A DNA stretch of 64,000 nucleotides from a virus (Duplodnaviria; Caudoviricetes). The translations under genes and the position numbers were made by a program. Below are positions 225-61,561 of the stretch, piece by piece. Where the stretch lies: the IMG/VR virus record IMGVR_UViG_3300049228_000061, positions 2,172 to 66,171 of that record; one strand, written 5' to 3'. The notes under the pieces were generated by a model. That model saw only the letters and a program-made list of their open reading frames with translations, had not been told where the DNA came from and ran no database searches. Positions within the stretch are counted from its first letter, which is position 1. The number at the start of each line of letters is the position of its first letter.

Positions 225-235
225 TTGGAGGATTT

Positions 236-735: not shown

Positions 736-764
736 ACGTCAAGTCTGAAACTGGTTAAGCTGAC

Positions 765-795
765 TTATACACAGCTTATCCACAGGTTATTCATG
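765..795 (+). promoter_or_regulatory. DnaA-box array 1
   Basis: TTATACACA (765-773) and TTATCCACA (776-784) both fit TTWTNCACA; degenerate TTATTCATG (787-795); 11-bp period. Confidence 0.7.
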
Positions 796-19423: not shown

Positions 19424-22400
19424 ATGGCACTGAACATCGAGGCTGCCCGCAAAGAAGGTTACTCGGACGCGGAGATTGTTGATTACCTGGGTACCCAGCG
19501 TAAGCTAGACATTCGTGCTGCCCGCAAAGAAGGTTACAAAGACAGCGAGATTCTGCAACATCTTGCGTCATCGAATTCATCACCCACCGCACCGCAGGGA
19601 GCCTCGGGCCAAGCGCCAGGGATGGCAAGCGATGGGTTGAAGCGCGCGACGGGTGATTTAGCCACTGGCCGTCCCGAGCTTGACATTCAGGTTGATGATC
19701 CCATCGCACCGGTTGTGACGCCGGAGCCGTCATTCTTGGATCAAGCAAAGCAGGCATGGAATATCGCCATGAATCAGCTGGGCGGACAGACCCTGGAGCA
19801 AGTCCAGATGTCTCACCAGCCGAAGCCTACTTCGGTTCTGGATACAACTTCAGCGGAGGCGCCGGCTTTTGAGAACCCCGCTTCTGTCAGGATTCCGATC
19901 AACAAGAAGTACCGCCAGCAGTTTGAGGAACACTGGGATTCGCTATCAGAGGGCGAGCGGGCACTGATGTCGCGCCAGCCCGGCGTGGCCGGCATGCTGG
20001 CCAAGGAGCGACTCGAGCTATTTGCGAACCAAGACCAAACAGCGCCAGATGCCGCAGACGATCTGGACACCAGGGCAGAGAAGCGCGCCAGCCGACTGGT
20101 AGAGCAAGGCATCGCGCCTGATGTGGCTGCGCTGGCCGCGCGCATGGGCGCCAAGTATGGGGCGCTGCCCGGTACTGAAATGGGTCTGCTTGGCGTGACC
20201 GGCGAAGCCAGCGAATCAGACTTCGATTTCGAGACCGCCGAAGCATTCAACCGCGATGTTGGGTCACAAAATGTTCTCAAGCGTGGCGCTGCCAAGGGCG
20301 CCCTGGGTCTCGGCAAGGCTGTCACCGGCATGGGCGAGTTCATCGCTGATGTGATTGGCACCGAAAGGGTTGGTGAGGCAATTGGTCGAGGCAGCAAGGC
20401 CATCCGTCGCCAAGAGGAAGCAATTGGCGCCAGCCGCGGTGATCTGATGGCGCGCGCCGTTGAGGGCGCTGTGGCCTCTATCGGGCAGCAACTGCCATTC
20501 ATGATGGCTGGCGCCGCAACCGGCGGGGCGGGAATTCCGCTGGCGGCGATTGCCGTCACCTCCTTCGGTAACGAGTACAGCGATGGGCGCAGCCAAGGCC
20601 AGTCGATGGAGCAAGCGCTGGCGCGCGCCTCCATGTATTCAGCATTTGAGGTCATCGGCGAACGGTTTGGATTGGGCGAGCAAATGGAAATGGTGCGTCG
20701 TGCGATGCGCGTCAAGGGCAAGATCCCAGATCAGCGAACGGCTGCTGGGCTGCTGTGGGATATGTTGGTCAAGCAGGTTCCGGGCGAGGTGTTGACCACA
20801 ACTGGCCAATTTTCCACCGACAAGTTCACCGGTGGCGGTGTTGGGCTGTCGCCTGACGCGACCTTTGATGACTACTTCGATCAGGTTGTCGAGACAATCG
20901 CTACCACCATGGTGCAGTCCGTCATGATGGGCGGCGGCACCATGATTCTGTCTGGCAACAAGCCTCCGGCCGACTCACAGCCGCCCAGCACGCCGGGAAT
21001 ACCTGAATCGCAGGCATTCGCAACCGAACCCGAAATTCAGCCGGGAGTGTCAACCAATGCTCAACCTACGCCCCCACCAGCCCCTGCCGCACCTCAAGAA
21101 GCGGCTCCCGCCCTGGCGGGCGAAGCTGCTGGCCCATCCGCCAGCCCTGATACCGCAAGTACGCCCGTTACCATTGACCGTCGGGCTTTGGCTGATGCTT
21201 TCACCATTGACGACGAGGGAACCATCGATGCTGCCCAAGCCACTACCGCTGTACGTGCCCAAGTGGAGTCCGCTTTGGCCGCCGGAACCACGGTCACCCA
21301 AGGACGAGGAAAAAACCGCGTTGCTGTTTCGTCAGCTGATGAAGTCGATGTGCCAGCAATCCTTGCAGGCAAGTCCCGTCTCCAAATTGGTGGACAGCCT
21401 TTACCAGCAACACAGCAAACGAAAGGGGGTGAAATCAATGTCAGCAATCAACAAACGACGAGCCAAGATGATGTGGGACTTGGCAGCGAAGCCAGTGGCC
21501 AAGAGCAAGAAACCCCGCCCGCCGGGCAAGCCGAGCAAGCGGATGCCGTACTAGCCCCCGAGCCGACGCTGGCTGAGAAGGCCAAAGCGCCGGTAGTGAT
21601 CGCACCCAGCGAGGAAGGGCTCACGGTTTCTGTGGACGGGAAACCGCAAGCAACCTACCCGACCAATGAGCTGCCTGAGCCGCTGGTTGCCGCCGAAACA
21701 CCGCCAGATGCTGCACCGAAAAAGCGGTCGATTATCAAGGCTGAGAATGAAGCGCCGAAGCCGGGAAAGGTTGGCGCAATGCTGGGCGCTGGCGAGACAG
21801 TGTTGACGACTACTGGCCGTGAGACATCTCCATTTCCAAAGATCGACATAACCACGAACGGCAAGGCCGGAAATACGGTTAAGCGAGTCGAAAAGTGGCT
21901 GATGGAGAATGCGCTGGCGGAGGCGGAGTCACGCGGCGATGAATTCAATGCGCGGCAGTTCCGCGCAAACTTGAGTAAACCATCGCAGGCAGATAAGGAC
22001 TCTGCTGAGTATTACTTGTTCGATCAGGGCTTCGTTCAGCCGGCACGCAAGTCGGCATTGAAGCCGCTGGTTGAAACACAGCCAGAGACTCCACCCAAGA
22101 AGTCCATCGTCAAGGCTGAGAACGAGAAGCCGACATTGCGGCGCGGCGACTCGGTTTCCTTTCCTATCGATGCTGACGGAAACAGAAACATAGGTGAAAT
22201 CACTTCAATCTTTGGCAACAAGCTCACCGTTACTACTGACGATGGCGCGAGAGTAACTATATCGGCGCGCGGTGCTGAATATGTGAGTAAGGACGCGCCA
22301 GCCACGCCGCAGCCGACGCGAAACATTTCCGGGCCAGAATCCCGTTTGACGAAATCGGCCGTAGATGTTGATCCATTCGCTCCGCCATCGCTTGAGCAGC

Positions 22401-25400
22401 GCTTGCAATCAGATGCCGAGCTGCGCGGCCATCTGGAACGCATGGCATCGGAAGCAGGCTGGGAGGAAGAAGGCGGCAAGCTGATCCGCGCCACCGAGGA
22501 TGAAACCAGCCCTGACTATGGCAAGGTGGTTGGTCGTACCAAGTGGCTGCCGAAGGCATTGTGGTGGGCCGCACGCCCCACTGGCTTCAACGAAAAGCGC
22601 ACCAAGGAAACGATTCGCAAAGCGCTGGCTGGTGAGCCATTGAGCAAACCTGAGCGCCGCATGGTCGAATTTTTGCGCGACGTAGCGGACGGCAAGGTGG
22701 AGGATTTCTTGCCCACCAGGGAAGAAGCGCAGAGCAGCAAACCAGAGGATGTGCTGGATGTGGCACTGGTAGCGCGTATGATCGAGCGTGCCAACGAGAT
22801 AGACGAAGCCGCTGTGGAGCGGCTGGCGATTCAACACGGCGATGACGATGATGGCTTTATGACCGCCATCAAGGAGCTGGTCCATGACACTGACACCCAA
22901 ACAACTGCTGGAAGCGGCGCGCAAAGTGGTCCAGCGCCGAGCGAAAGCCAAGCAGGCAAAACCGAAGCCAAAAAGCCCGTAGGGGATTTGTTCGGCGATG
23001 ATGTTGCCGCCAAGCAGGCCGTCGCAGATGAGGCGCGTAAGCGAGATGCGAAGCGCAACAGCGGCCAAGATTCGCTGGAGACCGGCGACCCATCGGATAT
23101 GTTCAGTCAGGCGAAGAACCAGACTGATTTGATGGATACTCCCGCGCCAAAGAAGGCGCAGGAGGTCAGCAAGAATAAGCTGGTTAGTGATGATGCTGCC
23201 GCCGTTGCGCGCGCCAAAGACAAGACACCAGAGCAGTTTGCCAACTGGGTGCGCGGCCGATACGGCAAACCCAAGGCGAAAGAGCTGACCGAAAGCGGGC
23301 AGGTGGATCGCTGGTATGCGGAGGCGAACCCAGCCAAAGCAGAACCTGTTGTGGAGCCGGAAGCGCCGAAGCCTGTCGAACAAAAGCCTGCGACGCCTGC
23401 CCCAGCAAAGCCGACCGCCAATATCCAGGATTTCGGCCAGAGGATAGAAGGGGCCAGAAAAGACTACGCCGCCAAACTGCGTGATGCGCAAACCGCCGAC
23501 ATCGCCAAGGTGCCGCTGTCTGAATCATGGCCGGAGCCGGATTACGCCAAGCTGCTGGAGGGTGGTGCCGACTCGTGGGCCGTTGGTTTTATGCATGCTG
23601 CGCGCGATGATATTCCCACCAAGCCGCAGAAATCATGGAAGCTGGGGCGGTGGGTTTCACAGGTAACCGGCCTACGTGACATGGTTCAGAAGGTGATGGA
23701 CGGAGCCTATGATCGAGACATGATAGAGGGAAGGGAATCGCTCAAGTCTGTCTATGATCGCATTGAGCTGTATCAAACCGTCGGCCACGACAAGAGCCTG
23801 AAGGGCGTTCGCGTAGTCAGCGGTCATTACAGCGTGTTCAAGGGCATTGAATATAAGCCGTCCAAGACCATCTGGTCGGTTGAAAGCAATGGCAAGCAAA
23901 GCGCTTTGTCGAACTGGCCCAACATGCTTGGACATGGCGACACGCGCGCCGAAGCGATTGCTGCGTTCAAGAAGACTTGGGATGCCACCACACCTGAACA
24001 AGATGCCAAGAAGGCCATCAAGTTTGAACTGTATGGCCGTCGTGCCGACAAGACTTACTTCATTGGCAAGAAAGTCGGCCGGAACGTTGTCGAGTTGAAA
24101 GACGGCTTCACGGATGTCAAAACGGCCAGGGCATACTTGCTGGAGCATCACGACGAGCTGGTCACGCTGTTGGCCAAGAAGAAAGAATTGCCCAGTGAGC
24201 GCCGTGAGGAAAACGCGCCGCGCATTGGCATTGACCATCGCAATGGTGCGGATGTCACGCCAGAGCAGTTCCAAGAAGCCTTTGGGTTCCGTGGAGTTCA
24301 ATTCGGCACGCAGATGGAAGGCGCGCGGCGTCAAGCCGATTTGAATGATTCGTATGATGCGCTGATGGACTTGGCTGGGGTGCTGGGCGTGCCACCCAAA
24401 GCGCTCTCGCTTAACGGCGAACTGGGCTTGGCATTCGGTGCGCGCGGTCACGGTGGCAAGCTGGCACCGAAGGCGCATTACGAACGCGGCGAAGTCGTGA
24501 TCAACCTAACCAAGCGAACAGGTGCAGGCAGTCTGGCGCATGAATGGCTGCATGGCCTGGATAACTACTTCTCGCGACGCGGCGGTAACAAAGCTGGATT
24601 TATTTCGCTGATCCAGAAAGCACCGGAAGGTGTGCGACCAGAATTGTTTGAAGCGTTCAAGAATGTGATTCGTGCGATCAACAGTACTGAGTTGCCGAAG
24701 CGCTCCGGCAAGCTGGATCAGACGCGCAGCAAGCCGTACTGGGTGACCACCGAAGAAATGGTGGCGCGATCCTTCGAGTCTTACATCATTGCCAAACTGC
24801 AAGATCAAGGTGCGTCTAACGATTACCTCGCCAACATTGTGTCGCCCGCGTATTGGGATGCGGCGACCGGATTAGGTATGCAGAAGGATGGCACCTACCC
24901 CTATCCGCTTGAATCTGAGATGCCGATTGTCCGCGCGGCGTTCGATCACTTTTTTGACGTGATTGAGTCGAAGCCTACCGATGCGGGCGTGGCGCTGTAT
25001 CAGCGTGGTGATGCCACCCCCGGCAAGCTGCCGGAGAGGCAGGTTACCGCAGCCATTAACGAAGTCCTGCGCCCATTCCACCGGCGTCCTGTGTTGATCG
25101 TTCGGCAGACCTACGCTCAACTGCCGTCTGATGTGCGCGCGGCCATTGAGCGTCGTGGTGATAAGCCGGGCGACATGCGCGCCATCTACTGGAACGGAAA
25201 GTTCTATGCCGTGGCCGATGATATCCCCTCAATGGAAGCAATCCCTGAGCTGGTGCTGCATGAGGTCGTCGGTCACTTTGGCTTGGATGCCATGCTGACC
25301 GAAGCCGATAAGCAGGCGATTCTGGATGGTTTTTACGACTCCATGACAGACGCCGTGAACGAGCGAGGCGTTCAGGAATTTGGAGCAAAGTGGGATGTTG

Positions 25401-28400
25401 GAAACATCAAAACACGTCGTCTTGCGACAGAAGAAGTGCTGGCTTATCACTTTCAAGACTACCTGAAGGATCGACAGAGCGTGCCGGAGCCAGCGAAGAC
25501 ATGGATGGAGCGACTGAAGGCAAAAATTTCCGCGTTCATCAAAAAAATGTTGAGACTGGCCCCGGTTTACAAACTGCCCAAGCAATACGACCAGACGTTC
25601 ATGAATCGGCTTGCAGATGACCTGTTGCGATCCCTGAAGTCTAACAAGCCACTATCGGGCGATGGCAAGACCAAGGCTGAGGCGGCACGCGATGCCCGCT
25701 ATACCGAGAAGGCTGGCATCTTCTATTCGCATCTGACGCGCTCCGCGCAGTTGGCCAAGATCAGCGTCGGGCGGGGCGAGCAGTGGCTGAACACGCTGCG
25801 CAACATGCCGGGTGTCAAAGCAGAGGAAATTGAAGCCGTAGACCTTGAGCAGTTTCTGGGTGATCGCATCAAGATCAGCAAGCAGGAGGTGGTGGATTAC
25901 CTGGGCTCGAATGGGGTGCAGGTTACGGAGACGGTTCTTGGTGGCGACGGAAAAGTAAAATTCATGGATTCGTTGAGCGCAGCAGAGAGCCAGCGCTTCA
26001 ATGAGCTTCTGAATATCCCGGGCGGCGAATGGAACGGTAACGGCTACTCAGGTGGACGACCACTTACAGCAGAAGAGCAAAGCGAACTATCCGACCTTCA
26101 GGAAACGCACCTTCATGATCGTGTAACAACCGATGCAGCGAGACGCGATGCAGAGAAATCGGCAACCAAGTTCTCCAAATACGCCCTACCCGGTGGCTCC
26201 AACTATCGCGAGCTGCTGCTGACGCTGCCATCTGATACGAAAGCAGAAGATAGTGGTGGTGCGTATTACCGTGAAACGACCGGAGACTTTCGCTCATCCC
26301 ACTGGGATCAACCCAACGTCATCGCCCACATTCGCTTCGATGAACGTGCTGATGCCGATGGCAAGCGCGTGATGCACATCGCTGAGGTACAGAGTGATTG
26401 GCATCAGGCGGGGCGGAAGAAAGGTTATCGGTCTCCTAAAAAAGAAACATCAGTTGCAGATGTAAAATTGGTCAAAGAAGATCAATGGAACTGGTGGCTG
26501 GCAGATGCTAATGGAGATGAGCACAAGGTTAGCAAAGCGGATTACGAACGAACCGGGATAGATAAAGCAAAGCAGGACATTGCTTTCTGGGAAACACGGA
26601 AACTTGCTGACCAGAACTTGCTGGCAGTTCCAAACGCCCCCTTCAAAACCACATGGCCAGAACTCGCGATGAAGCGTGCTATTCGCTACGCCGCTGAGAA
26701 TGGTTTCGACAGGATAACTTGGGACACCGGTGCCACCAATGCGGAGCGGTATGACCTGAGCAAAACACTATCGTCTGTTGCATTGAGCGGCAGCAATTTC
26801 AAGGCGTTCGATCTTGACGGTGAAGAGGTCATGTCACGTACCGGCGTGCGCCCGGAAGATTTGCCAGATTTGATTGGTAAGGACGCTGCCGAGAAGTTAA
26901 TGGCCAAAAAGCCAAATGGAACTCTACGTGTGCTTGAAGGACTAGACCTCAAAGTAGGCGGCGAAGGCATGATTGGCTTCTACGACCGCATCCTGCCCGC
27001 AACGGTCGGCAAGCTGATCAAAAAGTGGGGCGGGAAAATCCTTTCCGTAAGACTGCCAGGATCAGCAACTTATGAACAGCTGAAAGCAGCCGGCACATCA
27101 ACCGGATTGACGCAGGCGCAACTTGATCAAATGCCAGTCGCGGAACGTAAGGCGCTAGTTGATTCAAAATTGCCATTATCCCATGGCTTCAACATCACCG
27201 ACGCCATGCGCCAGTCCGCGATGCAGGGACTGCCACTATTCCAGCGCAATTTGCCAACAGCGAATAAATCCACCCCCACTGCTGGAAAATCAGCCGACCC
27301 AGCCGATGCGCAATGGCAGTACCCGCAAGTAACCAAGCTGGGCGACGGCCGGCTGATCCGGGTGATCAACGGCATTCATAGCCGTGTCGATCAATTCCTG
27401 TATGACCGAGTTGACTACTACTTGGATACTCGCCGAGTGGTGAAAGCAATCGCGCAAAAGCAGGGAGTGGAAACACTGCCTGACAATGTTGATCCGATGC
27501 TGGGCTTGGAGCTGATGCCGCGCCGCATCTCTGATCGTGTCGATACGATGATGAAGGATGAATTCCTGCCGATCTTGGAAAAGATGCACGCGCTCGGCCT
27601 AGATATCAAACGCGTGGAGGATCACTTGCAGTTCCGGCATGCGCGCGAACGCAACGAGACCATAGCGCAGCGCAACCTGAATAATCCTGCCATGCAGGAC
27701 GGTGGCAGCGGCAAGTTTGAGCGAGAGATCGCTGATTACTTCGCAGCACTTGACCCGAAGGACAAAGCCAAGCTGGATGAAGTGGCTGCCATGGTGAAGG
27801 AATACATCAAAGGCACTCGGCAGACACTGGTTGGATATGGCTTGGAAAGCCAGGTCACCATGGATCTGCGCGCCGCAGCGTGGCCGGACTACGTGCCATT
27901 GCAACGAGCTGATTACGAGAACGACGCGGTGTACGGCATTGGCCAAGGCATCAGCGTCAAGGGCTCGGACTCCAAGGCAGCGCTGGGTTCGCACAAAGAG
28001 GTGGTCAACATCCTGTCCAATATCACCAAGCAGCGCGAGCAAGCGATTATTCGTGGCGAGAAAGAGCGCGTGGCCGTGGCGTTGTATGGGTTGGCGGAGA
28101 TGAATCCTAATCCAGATTTTTGGAGCACGACAAACTTGCCGAAAATTCGCCATCTGGATAAGCAGACTGGCCAGGTCGTCAGTCAGACCGACCCGAAGTG
28201 GAAATCACGCGACAATGTGATCGTGGTCAAGAGGCCGAATCGCGCCGGCCGCATCGTCGAGCGCGCCATCGTGTTCAGCGAGCGCAATCCCATGGCAAAG
28301 CGCATGGTGACGGCGCTGAAGGGCTTGGACTTGCCGGAGATGGACAAAAAGACGCGCCTGTTCGGCGCGTATTCGCGGTTCATTTCCGCGATCAACACGC

Positions 28401-30067
28401 AGTGGAGCCCATCGTTCGGCATGGTGAACTTTCATCGTGACTGGCAGGAAGCCATGGCCAATCTGAGCACGACGCCACTGAAAGGCAAGCAGGTAAAGGT
28501 GGCCAACTATTCCCGCAAGGCATTGGGTGGCATCTTTGCCGATGCGCGCGCGCGCCGCAAAGGCAAACATCCGACCTCCGAATGGGCCAAGTGGTATGAG
28601 CGGACGTCGGCGGCCGGCGGCCTGACCGGGTTTCGGGACATGTTTGAGACCGATGCCAAGCGCGCCGACAAGGTGGAGCAACTGTTCAAGCAGCTGGACC
28701 AAGGCATTATTGCCAAAGCGCCCAGAGAAATTGCGGGCCTGATCGAAGACATGAACACCATGTTCGAGTCTGCGGTGCGCGTTGCGGCGTTCCGGGCATA
28801 CGTGGAAATGAAAGCCGCCGAGAATGGCAACACGGATGCGACCAAGACCACCGATTACGATACTTCTTTCGACGCACGCGCCGCACAGATTTCCAAGTCC
28901 ATCACCGTGAACTTCAACAAGCGCGGTCGCCTCGGCTATTCGATGAATGCTTGGTATGCGTTCAGCAATGCCATCATCCAGGGCGTGGGCCGTAACTACG
29001 AAACACTCACCGGGCCACGTGGCCGAGCCATCATCGGCGGAGCACTGCTGGTGGGCGCGTTGCAAGCGTTCTGGCTGGCCGCTGCTGGCTTTGACGATGA
29101 TGACGATGAATCCACCCACATCGATTCGTTCGTGAAGAATCGTAGCTTCCTGATTCCCACCGGCGATGGCACCTACAAACAGTGGCCCATACCGCACGGC
29201 TTACGTTGGATCGTGGCCTTGGGGCGCATAGTGACCGAGCAGGCCATCCACAAAGGCAAGACAGCAGGAGATGCCGCCAGCGAGAGCTTTGGCGTGCTGA
29301 TGGATGCCTTTAACCCGCTGGGCACCAGTGGCAGCCTGTTGCAGATGGCGGCGCCCACCATCGCCGACATTCCGGCTGGCTTGGCAGAGAACAAGAACTA
29401 CCTTGGCCGATCAATCTATCTGGAAGGCTATGGCGACAGCGACCCCACCCCAGGCTTCGCGCGCCAGAAAGACACCGCCACGCCCGTCGGGAAGGTGGTG
29501 GCCAGAGTGATGAATACCCTGAGTGGCGGCAGCGACTTCACGCGCGGCATGGGTTCCGATGGCCGGTTTGTGGGCGACCTGTTCAGCCCGACCCCGGACC
29601 ATGTTGATTACCTCATTCAGCAACTCACCGGCGGCCCTGGGCGTGAAATTTCCAAGATTTGGCAGACCGGCGAGTCCATGTTGACCGGCGAAGACCTGCC
29701 CACCTACAAAGTGCCGCTGTGGGGCATGATTTCTGGCTCAGTGAATGAGCGCGCCGCAGAGCGCAATGCGTTCTACAAGCTGGCCACCGAAGGCGCCAAG
29801 CACAAAGCGGAGCTGGAAGGGCGTCAGGCTGATCCGTTTGGCTCGCAACAGACGCTGGATGATTACCTCAAGGAGCATCCTGGTTATCGCGGCCCCATGA
29901 TCGCGGCCACCAATGCGCAAAAGCTCAGCACCATTCGCAGCGAGAAACGTAAAGCGGCAGCCAATGGCGCGACTCAGGAGCAGCTGAATGCGTATGATGA
30001 CCGCGCCGCAGCGCTCATCACCAAGACGCTGCAGCGCAATAAAGAACTTCGTCAGGAAGCCCGCTGA
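19424..30067 (+). CDS. giant ejection / large polyvalent protein (LPD5-, LPD1-, LPD38-like and HExxH domains)
   Basis: 3547 aa; duplicated N-terminal AARKEGYxDxEI; IQDFGQRIEGARKD; GFRGVQFG...GSLAHEWLHGLDNY; LHEVVGHFGL; C-terminal ITVNFNKRG region. Confidence 0.85.
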   Translation: MALNIEAARKEGYSDAEIVDYLGTQRKLDIRAARKEGYKDSEILQHLASSNSSPTAPQGASGQAPGMASDGLKRATGDLATGRPELDIQVDDPIAPVVTPEPSFLDQAKQAWNIAMNQLGGQTLEQVQMSHQPKPTSVLDTTSAEAPAFENPASVRIPINKKYRQQFEEHWDSLSEGERALMSRQPGVAGMLAKERLELFANQDQTAPDAADDLDTRAEKRASRLVEQGIAPDVAALAARMGAKYGALPGTEMGLLGVTGEASESDFDFETAEAFNRDVGSQNVLKRGAAKGALGLGKAVTGMGEFIADVIGTERVGEAIGRGSKAIRRQEEAIGASRGDLMARAVEGAVASIGQQLPFMMAGAATGGAGIPLAAIAVTSFGNEYSDGRSQGQSMEQALARASMYSAFEVIGERFGLGEQMEMVRRAMRVKGKIPDQRTAAGLLWDMLVKQVPGEVLTTTGQFSTDKFTGGGVGLSPDATFDDYFDQVVETIATTMVQSVMMGGGTMILSGNKPPADSQPPSTPGIPESQAFATEPEIQPGVSTNAQPTPPPAPAAPQEAAPALAGEAAGPSASPDTASTPVTIDRRALADAFTIDDEGTIDAAQATTAVRAQVESALAAGTTVTQGRGKNRVAVSSADEVDVPAILAGKSRLQIGGQPLPATQQTKGGEINVSNQQTTSQDDVGLGSEASGQEQETPPAGQAEQADAVLAPEPTLAEKAKAPVVIAPSEEGLTVSVDGKPQATYPTNELPEPLVAAETPPDAAPKKRSIIKAENEAPKPGKVGAMLGAGETVLTTTGRETSPFPKIDITTNGKAGNTVKRVEKWLMENALAEAESRGDEFNARQFRANLSKPSQADKDSAEYYLFDQGFVQPARKSALKPLVETQPETPPKKSIVKAENEKPTLRRGDSVSFPIDADGNRNIGEITSIFGNKLTVTTDDGARVTISARGAEYVSKDAPATPQPTRNISGPESRLTKSAVDVDPFAPPSLEQRLQSDAELRGHLERMASEAGWEEEGGKLIRATEDETSPDYGKVVGRTKWLPKALWWAARPTGFNEKRTKETIRKALAGEPLSKPERRMVEFLRDVADGKVEDFLPTREEAQSSKPEDVLDVALVARMIERANEIDEAAVERLAIQHGDDDDGFMTAIKELVHDTDTQTTAGSGAQSGPAPSESQAGKTEAKKPVGDLFGDDVAAKQAVADEARKRDAKRNSGQDSLETGDPSDMFSQAKNQTDLMDTPAPKKAQEVSKNKLVSDDAAAVARAKDKTPEQFANWVRGRYGKPKAKELTESGQVDRWYAEANPAKAEPVVEPEAPKPVEQKPATPAPAKPTANIQDFGQRIEGARKDYAAKLRDAQTADIAKVPLSESWPEPDYAKLLEGGADSWAVGFMHAARDDIPTKPQKSWKLGRWVSQVTGLRDMVQKVMDGAYDRDMIEGRESLKSVYDRIELYQTVGHDKSLKGVRVVSGHYSVFKGIEYKPSKTIWSVESNGKQSALSNWPNMLGHGDTRAEAIAAFKKTWDATTPEQDAKKAIKFELYGRRADKTYFIGKKVGRNVVELKDGFTDVKTARAYLLEHHDELVTLLAKKKELPSERREENAPRIGIDHRNGADVTPEQFQEAFGFRGVQFGTQMEGARRQADLNDSYDALMDLAGVLGVPPKALSLNGELGLAFGARGHGGKLAPKAHYERGEVVINLTKRTGAGSLAHEWLHGLDNYFSRRGGNKAGFISLIQKAPEGVRPELFEAFKNVIRAINSTELPKRSGKLDQTRSKPYWVTTEEMVARSFESYIIAKLQDQGASNDYLANIVSPAYWDAATGLGMQKDGTYPYPLESEMPIVRAAFDHFFDVIESKPTDAGVALYQRGDATPGKLPERQVTAAINEVLRPFHRRPVLIVRQTYAQLPSDVRAAIERRGDKPGDMRAIYWNGKFYAVADDIPSMEAIPELVLHEVVGHFGLDAMLTEADKQAILDGFYDSMTDAVNERGVQEFGAKWDVGNIKTRRLATEEVLAYHFQDYLKDRQSVPEPAKTWMERLKAKISAFIKKMLRLAPVYKLPKQYDQTFMNRLADDLLRSLKSNKPLSGDGKTKAEAARDARYTEKAGIFYSHLTRSAQLAKISVGRGEQWLNTLRNMPGVKAEEIEAVDLEQFLGDRIKISKQEVVDYLGSNGVQVTETVLGGDGKVKFMDSLSAAESQRFNELLNIPGGEWNGNGYSGGRPLTAEEQSELSDLQETHLHDRVTTDAARRDAEKSATKFSKYALPGGSNYRELLLTLPSDTKAEDSGGAYYRETTGDFRSSHWDQPNVIAHIRFDERADADGKRVMHIAEVQSDWHQAGRKKGYRSPKKETSVADVKLVKEDQWNWWLADANGDEHKVSKADYERTGIDKAKQDIAFWETRKLADQNLLAVPNAPFKTTWPELAMKRAIRYAAENGFDRITWDTGATNAERYDLSKTLSSVALSGSNFKAFDLDGEEVMSRTGVRPEDLPDLIGKDAAEKLMAKKPNGTLRVLEGLDLKVGGEGMIGFYDRILPATVGKLIKKWGGKILSVRLPGSATYEQLKAAGTSTGLTQAQLDQMPVAERKALVDSKLPLSHGFNITDAMRQSAMQGLPLFQRNLPTANKSTPTAGKSADPADAQWQYPQVTKLGDGRLIRVINGIHSRVDQFLYDRVDYYLDTRRVVKAIAQKQGVETLPDNVDPMLGLELMPRRISDRVDTMMKDEFLPILEKMHALGLDIKRVEDHLQFRHARERNETIAQRNLNNPAMQDGGSGKFEREIADYFAALDPKDKAKLDEVAAMVKEYIKGTRQTLVGYGLESQVTMDLRAAAWPDYVPLQRADYENDAVYGIGQGISVKGSDSKAALGSHKEVVNILSNITKQREQAIIRGEKERVAVALYGLAEMNPNPDFWSTTNLPKIRHLDKQTGQVVSQTDPKWKSRDNVIVVKRPNRAGRIVERAIVFSERNPMAKRMVTALKGLDLPEMDKKTRLFGAYSRFISAINTQWSPSFGMVNFHRDWQEAMANLSTTPLKGKQVKVANYSRKALGGIFADARARRKGKHPTSEWAKWYERTSAAGGLTGFRDMFETDAKRADKVEQLFKQLDQGIIAKAPREIAGLIEDMNTMFESAVRVAAFRAYVEMKAAENGNTDATKTTDYDTSFDARAAQISKSITVNFNKRGRLGYSMNAWYAFSNAIIQGVGRNYETLTGPRGRAIIGGALLVGALQAFWLAAAGFDDDDDESTHIDSFVKNRSFLIPTGDGTYKQWPIPHGLRWIVALGRIVTEQAIHKGKTAGDAASESFGVLMDAFNPLGTSGSLLQMAAPTIADIPAGLAENKNYLGRSIYLEGYGDSDPTPGFARQKDTATPVGKVVARVMNTLSGGSDFTRGMGSDGRFVGDLFSPTPDHVDYLIQQLTGGPGREISKIWQTGESMLTGEDLPTYKVPLWGMISGSVNERAAERNAFYKLATEGAKHKAELEGRQADPFGSQQTLDDYLKEHPGYRGPMIAATNAQKLSTIRSEKRKAAANGATQEQLNAYDDRAAALITKTLQRNKELRQEAR

Positions 30068-53565: not shown

Positions 53566-55731
53566 GTGAAGCCCAGCAAGTATGCAGCCAGTGGCGCGCT
53601 GGATGTCTCGTCTTATACCAATACCTGGGGCACGGATCATGCATCGGCTGAAACCAAGAACGGTGCCATGTCGTTCGAGCAGATGAATGGCTTCATCAAC
53701 GAGATTATCGTCCAGCCACCCTGGCGTGGACGGGCTGATGTCGAAGCTGATTACTACGACTCCAATCAGTACGACGCCGAAACGCTTCAAGAGATGAAGA
53801 CTCGCGGTATTCCACCCATCGTGGTCAACCTGATCGCGCCGACCATCAACATGGTGCTGGGCCTTGAAGCCAAAACCCGCACGGATTGGGTGGTAAAGCC
53901 TGAGCTAGACCAGTATGAAGATGCTGCCCTGGCCATGAGCCAGAAGCTGAAAGAAGCTGAACGGATGTCCGGTGCCGATAGGGCCAACGCTGACGCCTAC
54001 GACAACCAGATCAAGGTCGGGTTGGGCTGGGTTGAGGTGGGCTACAACAAGCAAGACCCATTCGGTTACCGATATTCATGTCAGTTCGTGCATCGCCGTG
54101 AAATATGGTGGGACTGGCACGACAATGACCCAGGTTTGGCGAAGGCGCGGTATCTGGTTCGTCGTAAATGGTACGACGAGGATGTGGCTTGTGCGTATTT
54201 CCCGCAGCACGAAGCACTGATTAAGGGCGCACTACGCGGTTGGTCGAATTTCGACCCATCGCAACTGGATACCGCAGCCCCCCTCTACATCGACCTGGAT
54301 CATGAGAGGAACTTCGCGTGGCAGGAGGAGGAATGGCGCGACAGCCTGCGTAAGCGAATCTGCATCTACGAAGTCTGGTATCGCACCTACTCGCGCGGGT
54401 TCATCGTTCGGTTCAAGAATGGGCAGGTCAAGGAATTTGATGACCAAAATCCCGTGCAACTGGCTGCCGTCAATGCAGGCATGGCCAACATTGAGGCCGT
54501 GGTTATCCCCAAGATGCGCATGTCGTACTGGGTTGGGCCTCACCGCCTGGCCGACATGGAAACCCCGTATCCGCATCAGGAATTCCCCTACGTGCCATTC
54601 TGGGGATTTCGTGAAGACCGTACCGGCACCCCTTACGGCATGATCCGAGCGATGAAGCCACTTCAAGACGAAGTGAATGCACGCCGAGCCAAGATGTTGT
54701 GGCAGTTATCTGCCCGCCGGGTGTTTGTCGATGAGGACGCCGTGGCAGATCACGACAAATTCAAGGATGAGGTCGCCCGTCCAGACATGTACGCCTCCGT
54801 CAACACGATGAAAGGCAAGTACAAGGTCACAGATCGAATTCACATCGAGGACAATACGGGCTTGACCGCCCAGCAGTTCGATGTCTATCAGGACAGCAAG
54901 CAGAGTTTGCAGGACGCTGCTGGTGTGTATGCCTCGCAACTGGGCAAGAAGGATGGCTCTGCCGACTCTGGTATTGCTATCTCGCAGCTGATCGAGCAGG
55001 GCACTACTACCCTGGCTAAAATCAATGACAATTACGGCGTGGCGCGCATGTTGGTGGGCAATCGTCTGCTGGCGCTGATTTCGTTCGATATGGCCGGCAA
55101 GGAAGAATCGGTCAAGGTGCAGCAGTTCGGTGCCTATAAGCGGGTCAAGTTCAACCAGAAAAAGACCGATCCGGTTACAAACCGCACTTATCTGAACAAC
55201 GATATCACCCGCATGCAGATGTCGGTGGTGCTGGCCGACTTGCCACAGACGCCGACGTACCGCATGCAGCAGTTCATGGAACTGACCAAGATGGTGGCCA
55301 CACTGCCAGAACAGGTTCAGATGGCCGTGATCGACATCGTGATCAACGCCTCTGACATCCCTGACAAGCAGGAAATCTTGAAGCGTCTGCGTGATACGTT
55401 GGGCATTGGTTCCAAGCCGCAAGAGGATATGGACGAAGAAGAATTGGCGGAATTTCAGGCCAAGCAGCAGGAAGCGCAACGCCAGAAACAGATTCAGCAG
55501 CGCATCGAAGCAGCAACGGCTGCCGAGCTGGAGTCGAAAGTACCGCTCAACGATGCCAAGACTGAGCTCACGCTGGTGCAGGCCGATGCGATCAAGGTAG
55601 AGTCCAGCCTGGCGCCGGAGCTTTCCCGTCACGCTTCGACCGCACAGGCAGTCGAAGAACAAGAACAGGCAGCAGAACTGGCCAATCAGCCGCCTCCTGT
55701 TCAGCAACAGCCACAGCAAATCGAGGGTTGA
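53566..55731 (+). CDS. portal protein (P22-like)
   Basis: P.VVNLIAPTINMVLG, G.GWVEV, FPYVPFWG, PYGMIR.M..LQDEVN.RR; 721 aa. Confidence 0.9.
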   Translation: MKPSKYAASGALDVSSYTNTWGTDHASAETKNGAMSFEQMNGFINEIIVQPPWRGRADVEADYYDSNQYDAETLQEMKTRGIPPIVVNLIAPTINMVLGLEAKTRTDWVVKPELDQYEDAALAMSQKLKEAERMSGADRANADAYDNQIKVGLGWVEVGYNKQDPFGYRYSCQFVHRREIWWDWHDNDPGLAKARYLVRRKWYDEDVACAYFPQHEALIKGALRGWSNFDPSQLDTAAPLYIDLDHERNFAWQEEEWRDSLRKRICIYEVWYRTYSRGFIVRFKNGQVKEFDDQNPVQLAAVNAGMANIEAVVIPKMRMSYWVGPHRLADMETPYPHQEFPYVPFWGFREDRTGTPYGMIRAMKPLQDEVNARRAKMLWQLSARRVFVDEDAVADHDKFKDEVARPDMYASVNTMKGKYKVTDRIHIEDNTGLTAQQFDVYQDSKQSLQDAAGVYASQLGKKDGSADSGIAISQLIEQGTTTLAKINDNYGVARMLVGNRLLALISFDMAGKEESVKVQQFGAYKRVKFNQKKTDPVTNRTYLNNDITRMQMSVVLADLPQTPTYRMQQFMELTKMVATLPEQVQMAVIDIVINASDIPDKQEILKRLRDTLGIGSKPQEDMDEEELAEFQAKQQEAQRQKQIQQRIEAATAAELESKVPLNDAKTELTLVQADAIKVESSLAPELSRHASTAQAVEEQEQAAELANQPPPVQQQPQQIEG

Positions 55732-55734
55732 TAT

Positions 55735-57708
55735 ATGCAAGACATCAAGGTCACGCCGATCCAATTCAAGCAGACGTTTCAGGATGCTGAAATGTACAGA
55801 GGCGCCGCCGATATGCTGAATCGTGCTGCGCAGAATATTGCTCCACCACCGCAAGCTGGTAGCGCGCCGATTGTCATGGTGCGCACCATTGAGCAAACCA
55901 GAAAGGATCAGGCATGGGAGGCTGAGGAACTGGCGCGCAAGCAGTGGCGGAAGATCGAGGCGTTCAAGGCAACGCTGGGTACTGAGGAATCCGAGTTCTT
56001 TGCGTCAATCGTGGCTGCGCAGAGCGTGAATTGCCCTCCACTGGAGGCAAACAAGCATGCGGTCGGGCTTATCAATGCCAACCGCGAAGCGCGCAAGATT
56101 GCCAATTCGCCGCCAACCGATGCCGATAACCCGCAGGGTCAATCAAGGACAGTCATTGATCTATCTCACGTTCAGCCGCTGTCCAATGGCGACACCATTG
56201 AGATTACCCATGATGGCGAGGGCAATCTGATTAGCCATCGCGTGACCTATGAAGGCGAGGCAGAAGAAGTGTCAGGGATCGCCCTTGCCGCACAAGCCGA
56301 CACCACAACGATTGCCGACGCCGAGCGCATCAAGTACGAAAAGATGTGGCAGTTCGAGCAGTACCGCGCTGTAGCGCCTGGCGAAGGCATTGCTTCACGC
56401 TTCATGGACATCGCCAAACCCAAGGCTGGCAGCGAGGTCATCGACTTTGGCGCTGGCACGGGTCGCGGCGCGCTGATGTTGGCGATTATGGGCATGAAGG
56501 TGAAGATGCTGGACTTCGCCACCAACTGCTTGGACGAGGACGTGCGCAATGCGCTAACTACTCAGGCGCATGTGCTGAGCTTTGCCAAGCAGGATCTGCG
56601 TAAGTCCGTGCCGCATGTGGCTGAGTACGGGTACTGCACTGATGTGATGGAGCACATCGAGCCAAGCCAAGTGACGACGGTGGTCGGCAACATCTTGCGC
56701 AGTGCCCAGCATGTGTTTTTCCAGATCAGCTGTGTTGATGACGTCTGCGGTGCCCTGATCGGCGAGCCGCTGCACCTGTCCGTGCATCCCTATGCCTGGT
56801 GGCACGACCTGTTCACCCAGCTGGGCTGCGTGTTCCATTGGTCGAAGGACGAAGGCGACAGCTGCCTGTTCTACGTCTCCGGCTGGATCAAGGGCAAGGA
56901 CATGGTGGACGTCGGCGTGCTGAACATCACGATGGAGCAGGTTCGCGCAAATGTTGAGCACAATATGAATCAAGGCTGGCAGCAGGTGTCGCCGCATGCC
57001 ACCAACGATACGGAGGTGATGATTCTGGGCAGCGGACCGTCGCTGGGTCGAAGTCTGGAGGATATTCGCCGCCTCAAGGCGGAAGGCGTGAAGATCATCA
57101 CGCTGAACGGTGCCTACCAGTGGTGCCGGCAGAATGACCTGCTACCCGTCAATCAGGTGGTGGTTGACGCCAGGCCGTTCAATGACCGGTTCACGCGCCC
57201 AGTCGAGGAAGGCTGCAACTACTTCATTGCCAGCCAGTGCGATCCATCTGTGCTGGAAGGGCTACCAAAGGACCGAACCTGGCTGTGGCACACCACGGCT
57301 GAATCCATCAAGGACATTCTGGATAAGCACGAAGGCGTGTCATGGGGCATTCCCGGCGGCTCAACCGTGCTTCTGCGTGCTATCCCCATGTTCAGAATGC
57401 TGGGCTTCACCAAATTCCACCTGTTTGGCTGCGATTCCTGCTGCGATGAGGACGGGGCGCACCACACGACCCTGCAACCTGAGAACAACAACACCCCATT
57501 TCCGGTGATTGTGGGCGGCCGCCAGTTCCTATGCCACCCAGATCAGTTCTCCCAAGCCCAAGAGTTCATGGATCTGATCAAGATGATGGGCAATGTGATC
57601 GAACTGGAGGTCTATGGCAATGGCCTGCTGGCCTGGATTCTCAAGACGGGGGCCAGTTTGGCCGATTCGACCGCGACCCCTACGGCTGATGAAGAATTTG
57701 TGTTGTAA
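55735..57708 (+). CDS. class I SAM methyltransferase fused to a Maf/MptE-like (DUF115) domain
   Basis: VIDFGAGTGRG and YCTDVMEHI; then ILGSGPSL, ITLNGA, VVVDAR, FIASQCDP, GGSTV.LRAI and FHLFGCDSC. Confidence 0.8.
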   Translation: MQDIKVTPIQFKQTFQDAEMYRGAADMLNRAAQNIAPPPQAGSAPIVMVRTIEQTRKDQAWEAEELARKQWRKIEAFKATLGTEESEFFASIVAAQSVNCPPLEANKHAVGLINANREARKIANSPPTDADNPQGQSRTVIDLSHVQPLSNGDTIEITHDGEGNLISHRVTYEGEAEEVSGIALAAQADTTTIADAERIKYEKMWQFEQYRAVAPGEGIASRFMDIAKPKAGSEVIDFGAGTGRGALMLAIMGMKVKMLDFATNCLDEDVRNALTTQAHVLSFAKQDLRKSVPHVAEYGYCTDVMEHIEPSQVTTVVGNILRSAQHVFFQISCVDDVCGALIGEPLHLSVHPYAWWHDLFTQLGCVFHWSKDEGDSCLFYVSGWIKGKDMVDVGVLNITMEQVRANVEHNMNQGWQQVSPHATNDTEVMILGSGPSLGRSLEDIRRLKAEGVKIITLNGAYQWCRQNDLLPVNQVVVDARPFNDRFTRPVEEGCNYFIASQCDPSVLEGLPKDRTWLWHTTAESIKDILDKHEGVSWGIPGGSTVLLRAIPMFRMLGFTKFHLFGCDSCCDEDGAHHTTLQPENNNTPFPVIVGGRQFLCHPDQFSQAQEFMDLIKMMGNVIELEVYGNGLLAWILKTGASLADSTATPTADEEFVL

Positions 57709-57716: not shown

Positions 57717-58247
57717 ATGCCACGCCAGCCATCAACATGTTCGGTTCAGGATTGCGAAATACTCGCCAATCGTGGCAATGGTATGTGCGAGAAGCACTAC
57801 TATCGGCTGCGACGACATGGCGATGTTGAGAAGCGTTTGCGGAATGCCAACGGCGAAGGGACAGCCATCAAGGTGGGAAAATACTCGCGCGTCACCATCA
57901 ATGGAGAGCGGGTGCAGGCACATGTGGCCATCGTTGAGGCGGTGCTTGGCCGATCTCTGCCAGCTGGTGCAGAGATTCATCACGTAAACGAAGACAAGAC
58001 CGATAACCGCCACGAGAATTTGGTGGTCTGCCCTGATCGTGCTTATCACCAACTGCTGCATGCCCGCACCCGCGCCTTGGATTCTTGTGGCGATGCAAAT
58101 AAGCGAACCTGCCGGCATTGCCACGAGTATGATTCGCTCGACCAGTTGGTCAAGAACGGAACCAGCTATTATCATTTGGCGTGCGCAGCCGGGTACCAGC
58201 GTGAATATAAAACAAAGCAGCGAGGTAGCAATGCAGTAACAACTTAA
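57717..58247 (+). CDS. free-standing HNH homing endonuclease
   Basis: CS...C....G.GMCEKHY.R.RRHGD zinc finger; AHV.I.E..LGR.L....IHHVNEDKTDNRHENL; C-terminal CxxC. Confidence 0.9.
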   Translation: MPRQPSTCSVQDCEILANRGNGMCEKHYYRLRRHGDVEKRLRNANGEGTAIKVGKYSRVTINGERVQAHVAIVEAVLGRSLPAGAEIHHVNEDKTDNRHENLVVCPDRAYHQLLHARTRALDSCGDANKRTCRHCHEYDSLDQLVKNGTSYYHLACAAGYQREYKTKQRGSNAVTT

Positions 58248-58269
58248 CTTAACTGCGTAGGAGGCTACC

Positions 58270-58989
58270 TTGGCCGCTGGAACTTGGAAGATCGGTTAGG
58301 TCTCGCCGTGCAGTAATGCACGGTAGTAACGACGTGAATTGTCGGGAACCCTTAACGAGTGATGTCGATGGGAATCCGCAGCCAAGCGCCGTAGGAATAC
58401 GGTGAAGGTTCAGAGACTAGAGAAAGTAGGCCAGACCGGTTGAAATCTCCACGAGCGCGTCGCACCCCACGCGGGTGAAGAGATAGTCCCAGCCTCCGTG
58501 GAAACGCGGAGTGATCGGATAAAGAGCCGATCTATAAGGCGCTGTTACGCGAAAGCGAAAAAGTACATCGGGGCCGGGACCATCACCCTCGGCGCTGGCG
58601 TCATGAAAATGCAGCTGCACCGCGCTTCGGCGTCTGCGGCTATTCTCGTTCTCTCAACCCGTTCTACAAACGCATCGATTCCGGGCGAAATCTCGGCGAC
58701 GGGCGGGTATGTGGCGAACGGTCGAAACCTGGTGCCGGCAACGGCGCAATGGACGGTTGGCGCATCGGCCAAGCAGTACAAGTTCACCTACACCACGGCT
58801 GGTTTGGTGTTCACTGCGTCGGGTGCTGCACTGAACAACATCAAGTACGCCCTGATCCGTAATAGTACGGGCGCTGGTGCGGGCAAGGTGTTGTGCTTCT
58901 GCACGTTGTCAACGGCGGCGTTCACGATTGCGAGCGGAAATACGCTTACGATTGCTCCGGCTTCGACCGGCGTCTTCACATTGGCATGA
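58270..58989 (+). CDS. intron-split putative virion protein, join(58270..58292,58545..58989), 155 aa
   Basis: AGGAGG then TTG start; the spliced product reads MAAGTWKI|YAKAKKYIGAGTITLGAG... in one frame; unspliced it stops at TAG 58297. Confidence 0.85.
58293..58544 (+). ncRNA. group I self-splicing intron (IA-like, no internal ORF, 252 nt)
   Basis: P AATTGTCGGGAA (58337), Q AATCCGCAGC (58373), R GTTCAGAGACTA (58408), S AAGAGATAGTCC (58478); P1 with U.G wobble; P3, P7 and P9.0; terminal G 58544. Confidence 0.95.
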
Positions 58990-59047: not shown

Positions 59048-61561
59048 ATGGGCACCAATATCTACTACAGCGGATTTCTGATCCGCAATGCGTTGCGAAT
59101 ACCGCCCGCCGCCAGTATGTCAATGGCCGGTGTGGCTCCAACGATTACCAATAGCGCGCCGGATGTAACTGCTCCCACTACGCCTACGATCACAGCCACA
59201 CAAACTGGTAGTACATCGGTCAGCATTGCGTTGACCGCAGCCAGCACGGACGCAGTAGGCGTAACTGGGTATGAGCTGGACTGGAGTCCCAACGGTAGCA
59301 GCAGCTGGGCAAATTTGCCGGGTGTTACGGTAGCAGGATCATTCCCGTACACGCATACCTCACTTGCACCCAGTACTCAGTATTTTTACCGCTGCCGTTC
59401 GCGTGATCTGGCGGGTAATTTTAGTAATTACGGCTCCTCGAATGCAACGACTGCCGCCGCCAGTGGCGCAGTATTTGAGCGCACCATCACGCCTGCGAGT
59501 GATCCATCCGATGCGTTTGCAAAATACGATTTTGTTGATTCAGATAATGGCGCTCAATATACGTTCGGCATTGACTGCTGGAATCAGTCAGCAAATGGGT
59601 TTGGAACACACTATGGTTATTTCAACAGTAAAAATGATTGGGGAATTGCAGCAAGCCATCAAAATTTAACCCCTGGAGCTGTTAAAGCCTACACTAGCAT
59701 TTTACGTGGTTGGAAGCCTTCTGAAAACATTCGCAGTAGTGGCGACGATTTAACCGTCGGCATCCTCACCACAAGTATTACAAAATTAAAAATCAGCTGG
59801 GGGTACAGCAGCCCTTCTACAAGTACTGGATCGGGTTCCACTGCTTCAAATAGATACAATACGCTGATTGATTTTCATTTTACCGCGACGGCGACGGCCA
59901 CCTCGGCAACTCCGCAAACGACGAGTGTGATGTGGCAACCTCGAACAATAGATACTGATGGGTATTATGGGGGGTTGGCCAGCGTTGCACCTCAGTATGT
60001 ATTGGGCGGCATTACCTGTAGAGTCTTGGTAGATAGCCGATCCTGGGCAACGGGTAACACCATACAAATCTGGCCTGTACCCTGGAATGATTTCCTGAAT
60101 TTCGGTTATCAGGACATGGAGGTAGACTTTGCCGCCGTGTTCGCCGATCTAAGAACACTGACCTTTCTGCCTAGCGATGAGTACCTAAATGGGTATGAAG
60201 TTGGCGTTGAGCCCATTGCAGGCGGTATGCATACAACCACACGGTTCTGGTCTGCGATTCAAAGCGAAGCGGATATAGGCACGTCAGGCGACACTACTGC
60301 ACCGACAGCTGGAACATATACAGCCACGACTAATAGCTCCAGTCAAATCACCATCGCACAAACCACGGCGCCCACTGATAATGTTGCAGTTGTGCAAAAT
60401 GATTTAGAGCGTTCACCCAATGGAACTACCGGATGGGCGCAGATATTTTCTAATACCACATTCCCGCGTCAGGACAACGGACTTACTGGCAGCACGCAGT
60501 ATTTCTACAGAGTAAAACACTCTGATGCTGCGGGCAATTTTAGTTACTCAAGCACAATCAACAATACAACCAACGCGGCAAGCGGTGGTGCGCCTGGTGT
60601 GCCAACTAATGTAGAGGTTACAGCCTTTGCTCAAAATTCGATTTCTGTGCAATGCACGGCAGTTGCTGGGGCCACATCGTATACGTGGAGTCGGTCAACT
60701 GATAACGGTGGCTCATGGTCTGATTTAGCCACGGTTACATCCGCGTTTTACACAGACAACACAGCGACTGGTGCAACAGCGTATGTGGGTGATTACCTAC
60801 CGGGAGCGCCTCCCACTCGCTACGTGTATCGTGTAAAGGCTAACAACGGTGCAGGTAGCAGCGCATACACAACTGATGTATTTTTCAGTGTCTATAGAAA
60901 CGGCGTGCAGGGTTGGGTTTATAGCTTAAACTTTGGTGCAACGGTGACGCCGAATTACGCGAGCACCGGGCCAGATGGTAATGCTACCGTGCAGCATGTG
61001 AGTGGGTCTGGGTGGCAACCGGTGTCAAGCGGTAACTCGATGTTTACAAACATGCCGTCAAATATGTTCGCCTACAAAATACTGAAAGTTAAGCCGCTGT
61101 CATCTGGCTGGAACGGCTTTCTGAACCCTGTCTCCGTGGGAGATAGATTCTTCCATCCTGGTGGCGTAAACATGGCCTCAAATGTCACTGCACCAACGCC
61201 CGGTGTCATGACCGCAAATGTGTGGAATACCGTAAAAATCTCCTATGCGGACCTACTATTAGTTGACGTAACAGGTACAGCCTCATTTGCTGGTGGCGTG
61301 ATGACAGTGACTTCTGCGAGTGCTAACAGTCTGCGCAGGGGCATGATTATCGGGGCGACTGGCTTGAATTCTGGCTGTCAGATCGACACGCAAACCAGTG
61401 GTACAACGGGAGGTAGTGGTACCTATACGCTCTACAACAATACTCAAACACTCAGCAGTCGTTCAATATATGCCTCAGGCACCGACCAATACAAATGGTA
61501 CATTGACGTGCCCAGCAATTCTGCATATCTGGTTGATGATGTGAGGGATAGTCGGCAATGA
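59048..61561 (+). CDS. fibre / receptor-binding protein with fibronectin type III repeats and a GH12-like domain (start uncertain)
   Basis: Three Fn3-like units (WSPNG..YFYRCR, YFYRVK, YVYRVKA) around a GH12-like region. Confidence 0.75.
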   Translation: MGTNIYYSGFLIRNALRIPPAASMSMAGVAPTITNSAPDVTAPTTPTITATQTGSTSVSIALTAASTDAVGVTGYELDWSPNGSSSWANLPGVTVAGSFPYTHTSLAPSTQYFYRCRSRDLAGNFSNYGSSNATTAAASGAVFERTITPASDPSDAFAKYDFVDSDNGAQYTFGIDCWNQSANGFGTHYGYFNSKNDWGIAASHQNLTPGAVKAYTSILRGWKPSENIRSSGDDLTVGILTTSITKLKISWGYSSPSTSTGSGSTASNRYNTLIDFHFTATATATSATPQTTSVMWQPRTIDTDGYYGGLASVAPQYVLGGITCRVLVDSRSWATGNTIQIWPVPWNDFLNFGYQDMEVDFAAVFADLRTLTFLPSDEYLNGYEVGVEPIAGGMHTTTRFWSAIQSEADIGTSGDTTAPTAGTYTATTNSSSQITIAQTTAPTDNVAVVQNDLERSPNGTTGWAQIFSNTTFPRQDNGLTGSTQYFYRVKHSDAAGNFSYSSTINNTTNAASGGAPGVPTNVEVTAFAQNSISVQCTAVAGATSYTWSRSTDNGGSWSDLATVTSAFYTDNTATGATAYVGDYLPGAPPTRYVYRVKANNGAGSSAYTTDVFFSVYRNGVQGWVYSLNFGATVTPNYASTGPDGNATVQHVSGSGWQPVSSGNSMFTNMPSNMFAYKILKVKPLSSGWNGFLNPVSVGDRFFHPGGVNMASNVTAPTPGVMTANVWNTVKISYADLLLVDVTGTASFAGGVMTVTSASANSLRRGMIIGATGLNSGCQIDTQTSGTTGGSGTYTLYNNTQTLSSRSIYASGTDQYKWYIDVPSNSAYLVDDVRDSRQ

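Follow-up and report, generated by a model that had tools for sequence, protein, structure and literature searches.

In the phage genome studied here, a free-standing HNH endonuclease gene lies directly upstream of a small, probably tail-associated gene that is split by a group I intron lacking an ORF. Judged from their distribution over related loci, the two elements are neighbours at an insertion hot spot rather than a fixed or co-evolved pair. The reading that we prefer, and to which we give slightly better than an even chance, is that two independent selfish elements have met at this hot spot, that the HNH protein probably mobilises the intron by co-conversion and that immunity is probably due to point changes. 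The DNA belongs to an IMG/VR virus record of 66 kb from freshwater sediment, most of which is covered by the window, i.e., the whole stretch of 64,000 nucleotides that was analysed.

The locus is part of a morphogenesis block with the order portal gene, 657-aa gene, 176-aa HNH gene, Shine-Dalgarno sequence, exon 1, intron and exon 2. Their positions in the window are as follows:

53566-55731: P22-like portal gene, two genes before the HNH gene
55735-57708, plus strand: upstream neighbour of 657 aa with methyltransferase and MptE-like domains (Pfam MptE-like, 1.6e-14)
57717-58247, plus strand: free-standing HNH_3 endonuclease gene, 176 aa, stop codon TAA at 58245-58247
58260-58264, plus strand: Shine-Dalgarno sequence GGAGG of the split gene, read from the sequence, 5 nt before the TTG
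58270-58292, plus strand: exon 1, 23 nt, with the TTG start at 58270, six further codons and two bases (MAAGTWK, AT-)
58293-58544, plus strand: ORF-less group I intron, 252 nt (Rfam RF00028)
58545-58989, plus strand: exon 2, with the third base of codon 8, 147 codons and the stop codon at 58987-58989

The HNH stop codon is separated by 22 nt from the TTG start of the split gene and by 45 nt from the intron, and the exon junction reads TGGAAGAT/TTACGCG. An earlier note on this DNA had given the span 57717-58544, the same two distances and the junction, all of which hold on re-reading. Its description of an HNH gene adjoining an ORF-less intron is borne out by a Pfam HNH_3 match above the curated cut-off and by an Rfam match above threshold to an intron with no ORF of endonuclease size inside, and its label of the split gene as a putative virion gene is reasonable in view of matches to tail, baseplate and fibre-adaptor folds.

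Directly upstream of the 155-aa gene, every locus surveyed has a homologue of the 657-aa MptE-like gene, which forms the conserved left border of the slot. The product of this gene, which in the window follows the portal gene directly, has both a SAM-methyltransferase-like region and an MptE-like (Maf/DUF115-type) domain, and the variant in L167 has a DSPc phosphatase domain added. A promoter and terminator scan gave no signal beyond that of shuffles, and megablast and tblastn searches against the INPHARED phages returned no match. Elsewhere in the window, a tRNA gene is located at 1007-1078 on the minus strand (Rfam, 64.4 bits), and an ORF of 3547 aa at 19424-30067 carries the large-polyvalent-protein domains LPD5, LPD1 and LPD38. 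An assignment to the N4-like phages was rejected, this ORF being a large polyvalent protein and not a virion RNA polymerase.

The intron scores 59.6 bits (E 1.3e-12) with the Rfam family Intron_gpI (RF00028), whose gathering score is 50, and is the sole group I intron found in an Rfam scan of the whole 66-kb record. Its IGS, GGUCU, lies at 58299-58303, the two strands of P7 at 58415-58419 and 58484-58488, and the terminal G at 58544. Joining the exons from 58292 to 58545 yields a protein of 155 aa that begins MAAGTWKI/YAKAKK (MAAGTWKIYAKAKK..., as in about 1,900 uninterrupted homologues). In length and N-terminus the predicted spliced product agrees with the uninterrupted homologues, one of which (P0001) is 97% identical, and the splice sites are not shiftable because the bases flanking each junction differ. 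Removal of the intron from the mRNA would restore the 155-aa protein, splicing itself being predicted from the sequence.

For a test of structure, seven homologous introns were aligned, the alignment was folded, P7 was added by hand and the pairs were counted. The fold comprises P1, P2, P3, P4-P6, two extra helices, P8, P9 and P9.1, the extra helices being placed between the 5′ strand of P7 and the 3′ strand of P3. The 74 pairs are 98.4% paired, and both-side changes occur in 25 of them compared with 1-4 in controls whose 3′ partners were displaced by 1-3 columns; none of 500 shuffles reached the observed values. P7 is invariant among the seven introns. All seven have a U.G pair at the 5′ splice site (the last base of exon 1 is U; alignment columns 10 and 21) and a terminal G. 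P1 co-varies with the exon, i.e., AGAU/GUCU in the window, AAGCU/GGCUU in L082 and GCU/GGC at a second insertion site described below. Taken together, these comparisons show covariation in support of the conserved core helices P3-P9, the P3/P7 pseudoknot included, and point to a genuine intron whose structure is kept by selection. The sequencing runs found with the window stretch include no RNA run. Identical phage pieces occur in contigs of two further freshwater runs from other studies: in X2, a piece spans the end of the HNH gene, exon 1 and the start of the intron, and in X3 the pieces come from the HNH gene. They are the same phage and no new lineage, and neither run contains exon joints or an intronless variant.

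The interrupted gene belongs to a large family. A search with exon 2 returned 1,942 homologues, mostly of 155 aa, the best 120 of which are all uninterrupted with the same N-terminus; the 155-aa protein has 329 clusters at 50% identity. The protein falls into phrog_644 (function unknown), and Pfam assigns it to no family. Its AF2 model, built with 104 sequences, has a pLDDT of 90.7. Foldseek of this model against the PDB returned nothing at E <= 0.001. The closest structures found with VIA all come from phage tails, led by the baseplate of Klebsiella phage KP1 (9f4a_AY, Z 12.5 over 131 residues) and followed by the Bxb1 tail tip (Z 9.3), the GP4 fibre-tail adaptor (8jou_a, Z 8.8), the HFTV1 tail (Z 7.1) and the tail fibres of phage 7-7-1 (Z 5.2). 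Matches in BFVD agree and include a structural protein of phage 7-7-1. The modelled fold thus makes a tail or fibre-anchoring part the most likely identity of the 155-aa product. In intron-bearing phages this virion gene is miscalled in annotation, as exon 1 is merely 23 nt long. Downstream, at 59048-61561 of the window, a protein of 837 aa with weak Fn3 matches is encoded; it has no counterpart in 80 related loci despite syntenic upstream genes. It is probably a fast-changing receptor-binding protein, as a variable protein of this kind fits a gene that is not conserved in any relative.

The HNH gene is intact. Its product matches Pfam HNH_3 (PF13392) over residues 67-108 (47.1 bits, E 1.9e-12; cut-off 24.8 bits) as well as 16 PHROG HNH families, and it carries zinc-knuckle-like Cys/His clusters at both the N- and the C-terminus. 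All columns that are invariant in 34 homologues are retained (H69, H88, H89, N97, N101, H111, H115, C132, C135 and H153), and these include the catalytic His/Asn residues H88, H89, N97, N101, H111 and H115. With regard to a beta-beta-alpha-metal fold, the AF2 model has a pLDDT of 90.7, and the top VIA match of its core is I-HmuI (1u3e_M), with a modest Z of 5.7 and an rmsd of 2.3 over 58 residues; Foldseek of the model against the PDB gave nothing at E <= 0.001, and phmmer against PDB sequences, I-HmuI included, found no match. Among 5.8 billion proteins, 55 relatives were found. The remoter ones are free-standing genes in unrelated phage contexts, e.g., before RecT or a polymerase exonuclease, and such varied contexts are typical of homing nucleases. 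Membership of this class also follows from the sporadic presence of the gene between conserved neighbours in otherwise syntenic genomes. The protein is, on these grounds, most likely an ordinary free-standing homing endonuclease, with predicted activity.

The earlier note had gone further and proposed that the HNH gene and the intron form a collaborative homing pair and spread together. The layout part of this proposal stands, i.e., a free-standing HNH gene 45 nt upstream of an ORF-less intron in a virion gene, and the co-distribution part does not. Of the 80 IMG/VR loci with the 155-aa gene, 73 are free of intron and nuclease gene alike, and their spacer to the upstream gene measures about 41 nt; about 47 lineages with the same flanking genes carry neither element. 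The three closest relatives of the HNH gene occupy the same slot, between the MptE-like and 155-aa genes, and all three precede an uninterrupted gene. They are found in L110, the sister and nearest relative of the window genome (HNH 69% identical, host gene 97-98% identical), in L116 (HNH 66% identical) and in L111/L112 (HNH 51% identical). Conversely, the intron occurs in six lineages besides the window, none of which has this HNH gene: L005 has the intron without any nuclease gene, and L008, L009-12, L013, L082 and L136/L147/L158 have it together with a NUMOD3/Phage_endo_I-like ORF. The intron is therefore present in one of four HNH lineages and the HNH gene in one of seven intron lineages, in both cases that of the window (Fisher p 0.42), and the NUMOD3/Phage_endo_I-like nuclease accompanies the intron in five of five lineages (Fisher p 5e-6); these p-values are indicative only, as the lineages are few and were gathered from different collections by different searches. 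The two elements are thus distributed largely independently at homologous loci and are not gained or lost jointly. In a tree built from the 155-aa protein, rows with the intron are dispersed over a clade of 18 rows and absent from one of 43 rows. Each element is sporadic among syntenic relatives, as mobile elements are.

Wider searches gave little more. A tblastn search with the window HNH protein against the 80 IMG/VR loci, together with the related-locus search, yielded only distant core matches of 35-56% identity. A metagenome pattern scan for exon 1 plus a P3 strand returned 37 matches, of which only those in L136 and L147 lie in the 155-aa gene, the rest being unrelated. A protein search for intron-bearing alleles with the peptide of the 3′ part of the intron found only normal 155-aa proteins, and a related-locus search with the NUMOD3/PD-(D/E)xK alignment, limited to two peptide patterns, found no new loci. 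By eye, the exon flanks of intron-bearing alleles revealed no shared co-conversion tract. A 17-mer from the intron core matched 12 unrelated contigs, of which only L089, an unrelated viral contig of 109 kb, has related introns: two group I introns at 1062-1291 and 1394-1615, about 100 nt apart (79.4 and 46.7 bits). Both are adjoined by an ORF of 297 aa with LAGLIDADG-like motifs (30-923, minus strand), and L089 may represent another case of a free-standing nuclease with ORF-less introns. In L166, the closest nuclease-free relative, the spacer (1485-1557, 73 nt) keeps both HNH flanks; it retains the HNH ATG and the last ~20 nt of the coding end, which together make a mini-ORF of 14 codons, and resembles either an empty site or the scar of a deletion.

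The second nuclease, unrelated to the HNH protein, is a NUMOD3 plus T7-endonuclease-I-like PD-(D/E)xK ORF of 215-340 aa that fills the same slot in five phages:

L008, 3138-3785: NUMOD3/PD-(D/E)xK ORF
L009, 2994-3773: NUMOD3/PD-(D/E)xK ORF
L013, 2391-3299: NUMOD3/PD-(D/E)xK ORF
L136, 9407-10222: NUMOD3/PD-(D/E)xK ORF
L082, 6902-7924 in reverse-complement coordinates, reverse strand of the locus: NUMOD3/PD-(D/E)xK ORF

In all five, this ORF crosses exon 1 in a different frame and continues for 23-195 nt into the intron before it ends. The intron itself occurs at two insertion sites 6 nt apart. In the window it is inserted at 58292/58293, after ..TGGAAGAT, and L005 (3745/3746) and L009-12 (L009, 3750/3751) use a second, downstream site after ..TAYGCT, the introns being homologous and 78-84% identical. 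The guide at the second site, GGGC, matches that of L082, whose first site reads AAGCU. The 6-nt shift could have come about through a guide retargeted to the next GCU, which hints at an RNA-guided relocation.

The start codon of the 155-aa gene is the position at which HNH-bearing genomes stand apart. It is ATG wherever an allele without a nuclease gene was examined: in 44 of 44 distinct IMG/VR alleles as well as in L166, L167 and L169, the three closest nuclease-free relatives. In the four HNH alleles it is never ATG: TTG is found in the window (58270-58272), L110 (619-621) and L111 (1171-1173), and an apparent ATC, deduced from a partial gene, in L116 near 763. The association between start codon and HNH gene has a p of ~1e-5 and represents about three independent lineages, the window and L110 being sisters. 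The ribosome-binding region also differs in HNH-bearing genomes. These differences suggest an HNH target region extending as far as the start codon, and immunity that is due to altered sequence and not to the intron. Two readings fit the pattern, namely immunity substitutions in the target or a co-conversion tract travelling with the HNH gene, and under either of them the HNH zone of influence would lie within ~23 nt of the intron site. The start codon is among the few changeable positions in the very conserved 5′ end of the 155-aa gene, and the pattern could also stem from translational coupling or hitch-hiking.

The source of immunity can be approached from the intronless HNH lineages. Since L110, L116 and L111 carry the HNH gene without the intron, immunity without an intron exists in this HNH family, and L110 in particular argues that the intron is not the general source of immunity for genomes with this gene. 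With identities of only 51-69%, the HNH orthologues may not share one specificity, so L110 is no proof of what protects the window genome. It nevertheless appears more likely that the immunity of HNH genomes rests on changes in the ribosome-binding site and the start codon (TTG or ATC for ATG) rather than on the intron.

In the model that we prefer, one element is the ORF-less, putatively self-splicing intron in codon 8 and the other the HNH gene, inserted in the short spacer before the 155-aa gene. During a mixed infection, the HNH protein would nick or cut nuclease-free alleles somewhere in the stretch from the spacer to the opening codons of the 155-aa gene, and recombinational repair would then copy the HNH gene into the cut allele. 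Flanking DNA would be co-converted in the process, and the intron 45 nt away would be carried along, i.e., trans homing as in the case of the T4 mobE/nrdB intron. The target may yet span the intron insertion site; HNH nickases of the I-HmuI type have long footprints, and the start codon is only 21-23 nt from that site. With a zone of influence so near the intron site, repair that copies the HNH gene should carry the intron too. We infer the nuclease activity, the position of the target, the co-conversion and the source of immunity.

The collaborative homing proposed in the earlier note would, in its strict form, have the HNH protein recognise the uninterrupted junction, so that the intron splits the site and protects its genome, and both elements are copied together. 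The layout, with an ORF-less intron and a free-standing nuclease gene 45 nt away, is that of published cases (PMC3984707, PMC10448857). Within ~50 nt of the first 10 codons, which are very conserved, three mobile elements converge, namely an intron with two sites 6 nt apart and nucleases of two unrelated families; this suggests that the stretch is their common target, and the strict linkage of the other nuclease family to the intron makes collaboration at the site plausible in principle. We nevertheless consider the strict form unlikely for the window phage, as three of four HNH lineages, including the sister L110, lack the intron and six of seven intron lineages lack the HNH gene. Moreover, the L110 junction is one base off the joined exons of the window near the site, and intronless HNH genomes must be immune by other means; the window shares the candidate determinant of that immunity, a TTG start with an altered ribosome-binding region. 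At the other extreme, there may be no functional interplay at all: the HNH protein would be inactive or target another place, the intron would be inherited passively or would owe its mobility solely to the NUMOD3/PD-(D/E)xK nuclease in other phages, and the adjacency would reflect nuclease turnover by recombination. This would agree with the independent distribution of the two elements, with an intron core about equally similar (78-84%) to introns travelling with the other nuclease and with the origin by nuclease turnover that Barth et al. proposed for such loci (PMC10448857). It is a decidedly unlikely reading in our judgement: double-strand-break repair that copies the HNH gene would almost unavoidably co-convert a marker 45 nt away, given the co-conversion tracts known from phage homing (PMC2790892). 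In addition, the HNH protein keeps all family-invariant catalytic and zinc residues in a confident fold, and the start-codon region is systematically different in HNH-bearing genomes.

HNH proteins can also serve in packaging, HK97 gp74 being one that assists the terminase, and the gene considered here could be a morphogenesis gene of this kind instead of a mobile element. Its position within the morphogenesis block, two genes after a P22-like portal gene, would suit such a role, the chance of which we put close to nil: the protein belongs to the HNH_3 family, its core is closest to I-HmuI and its relatives occur in varied non-packaging contexts. The packaging assignment was rejected, as the gene is absent from ~47 syntenic relatives, the closest included.

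In a broader scenario, tentative and on balance doubtful, the locus family would show the birth and turnover of a mobile intron as they happen in nature. The intron would have been linked to the NUMOD3 nuclease, would have hopped by 6 nt and, in the window phage, would have had its partner nuclease replaced by the unrelated HNH protein, with start-codon immunity. The NUMOD3 ORF, ending in the first helices of the intron, would be one illegitimate recombination away from an intron-encoded nuclease. The relatives provide the more original material here, with a nuclease ORF ending inside an intron, an insertion site displaced by 6 nt and one nuclease family that has given way to another. In this locus family a single conserved target region of 30 nt comes with two intron positions, two unrelated nuclease families in one slot and abundant empty alleles, and its natural variants could reveal whether a nuclease targets the intron site, whether immunity comes from the intron or from point changes, and how nucleases are replaced.

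The arrangement of a nuclease gene beside an ORF-less intron is of an already known kind. I-HmuI (PDB 1U3E) is an HNH nicking endonuclease of Bacillus phage SPO1, encoded inside the group I intron of that phage. Both it and the window protein are phage HNH proteins associated with group I introns; unlike it, the window protein is free-standing and has extra Cys/His clusters at both ends. Collaborative homing is described in a review (PMC3984707) for the T7-like phages T3, PhiI and W31 and for the psbA intron of cyanophage S-PM2 with F-CphI, and the primary work reviewed there is that of Zeng, Bonocora & Shub 2009 and Bonocora & Shub 2009. The window layout matches these systems in its ORF-less intron and adjacent free-standing nuclease gene. 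It differs from them in that its HNH family lacks the intron in three of four lineages, the intron being mostly with another nuclease family, in that the host gene encodes a small tail-associated protein and not a polymerase or psbA product, and in the position of the nuclease gene upstream of exon 1.

The closest parallel is provided by phage T4, in which the nrdB intron, with its defunct I-TevIII, moves by trans homing through mobE (Wilson & Edgell 2009; PMC2790892). There, too, a free-standing HNH gene stands beside an intron-bearing gene, and the intron moved as a by-product of the repair of the HNH break; trans homing of the mobE type is, in our judgement, the most likely mechanism in the window phage. 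The T4 intron, however, keeps a degenerate nuclease ORF, whereas introns of the window type are ORF-less in seven of seven lineages, and MobE activity was shown genetically, that of the window HNH protein being predicted. In Vibrio phage ICP1, for which collaborative homing has also been noted, an intron in the large-terminase gene adjoins a T5orf172 nuclease gene (Barth et al. 2023; PMC10448857), which, as in the window, is directly beside a very short N-terminal exon missed by annotators. The nuclease family and the host gene are different in ICP1, whose authors raised nuclease turnover as an alternative origin (PMC10448857); the locus family described here displays such turnover, with two unrelated nucleases in one slot.
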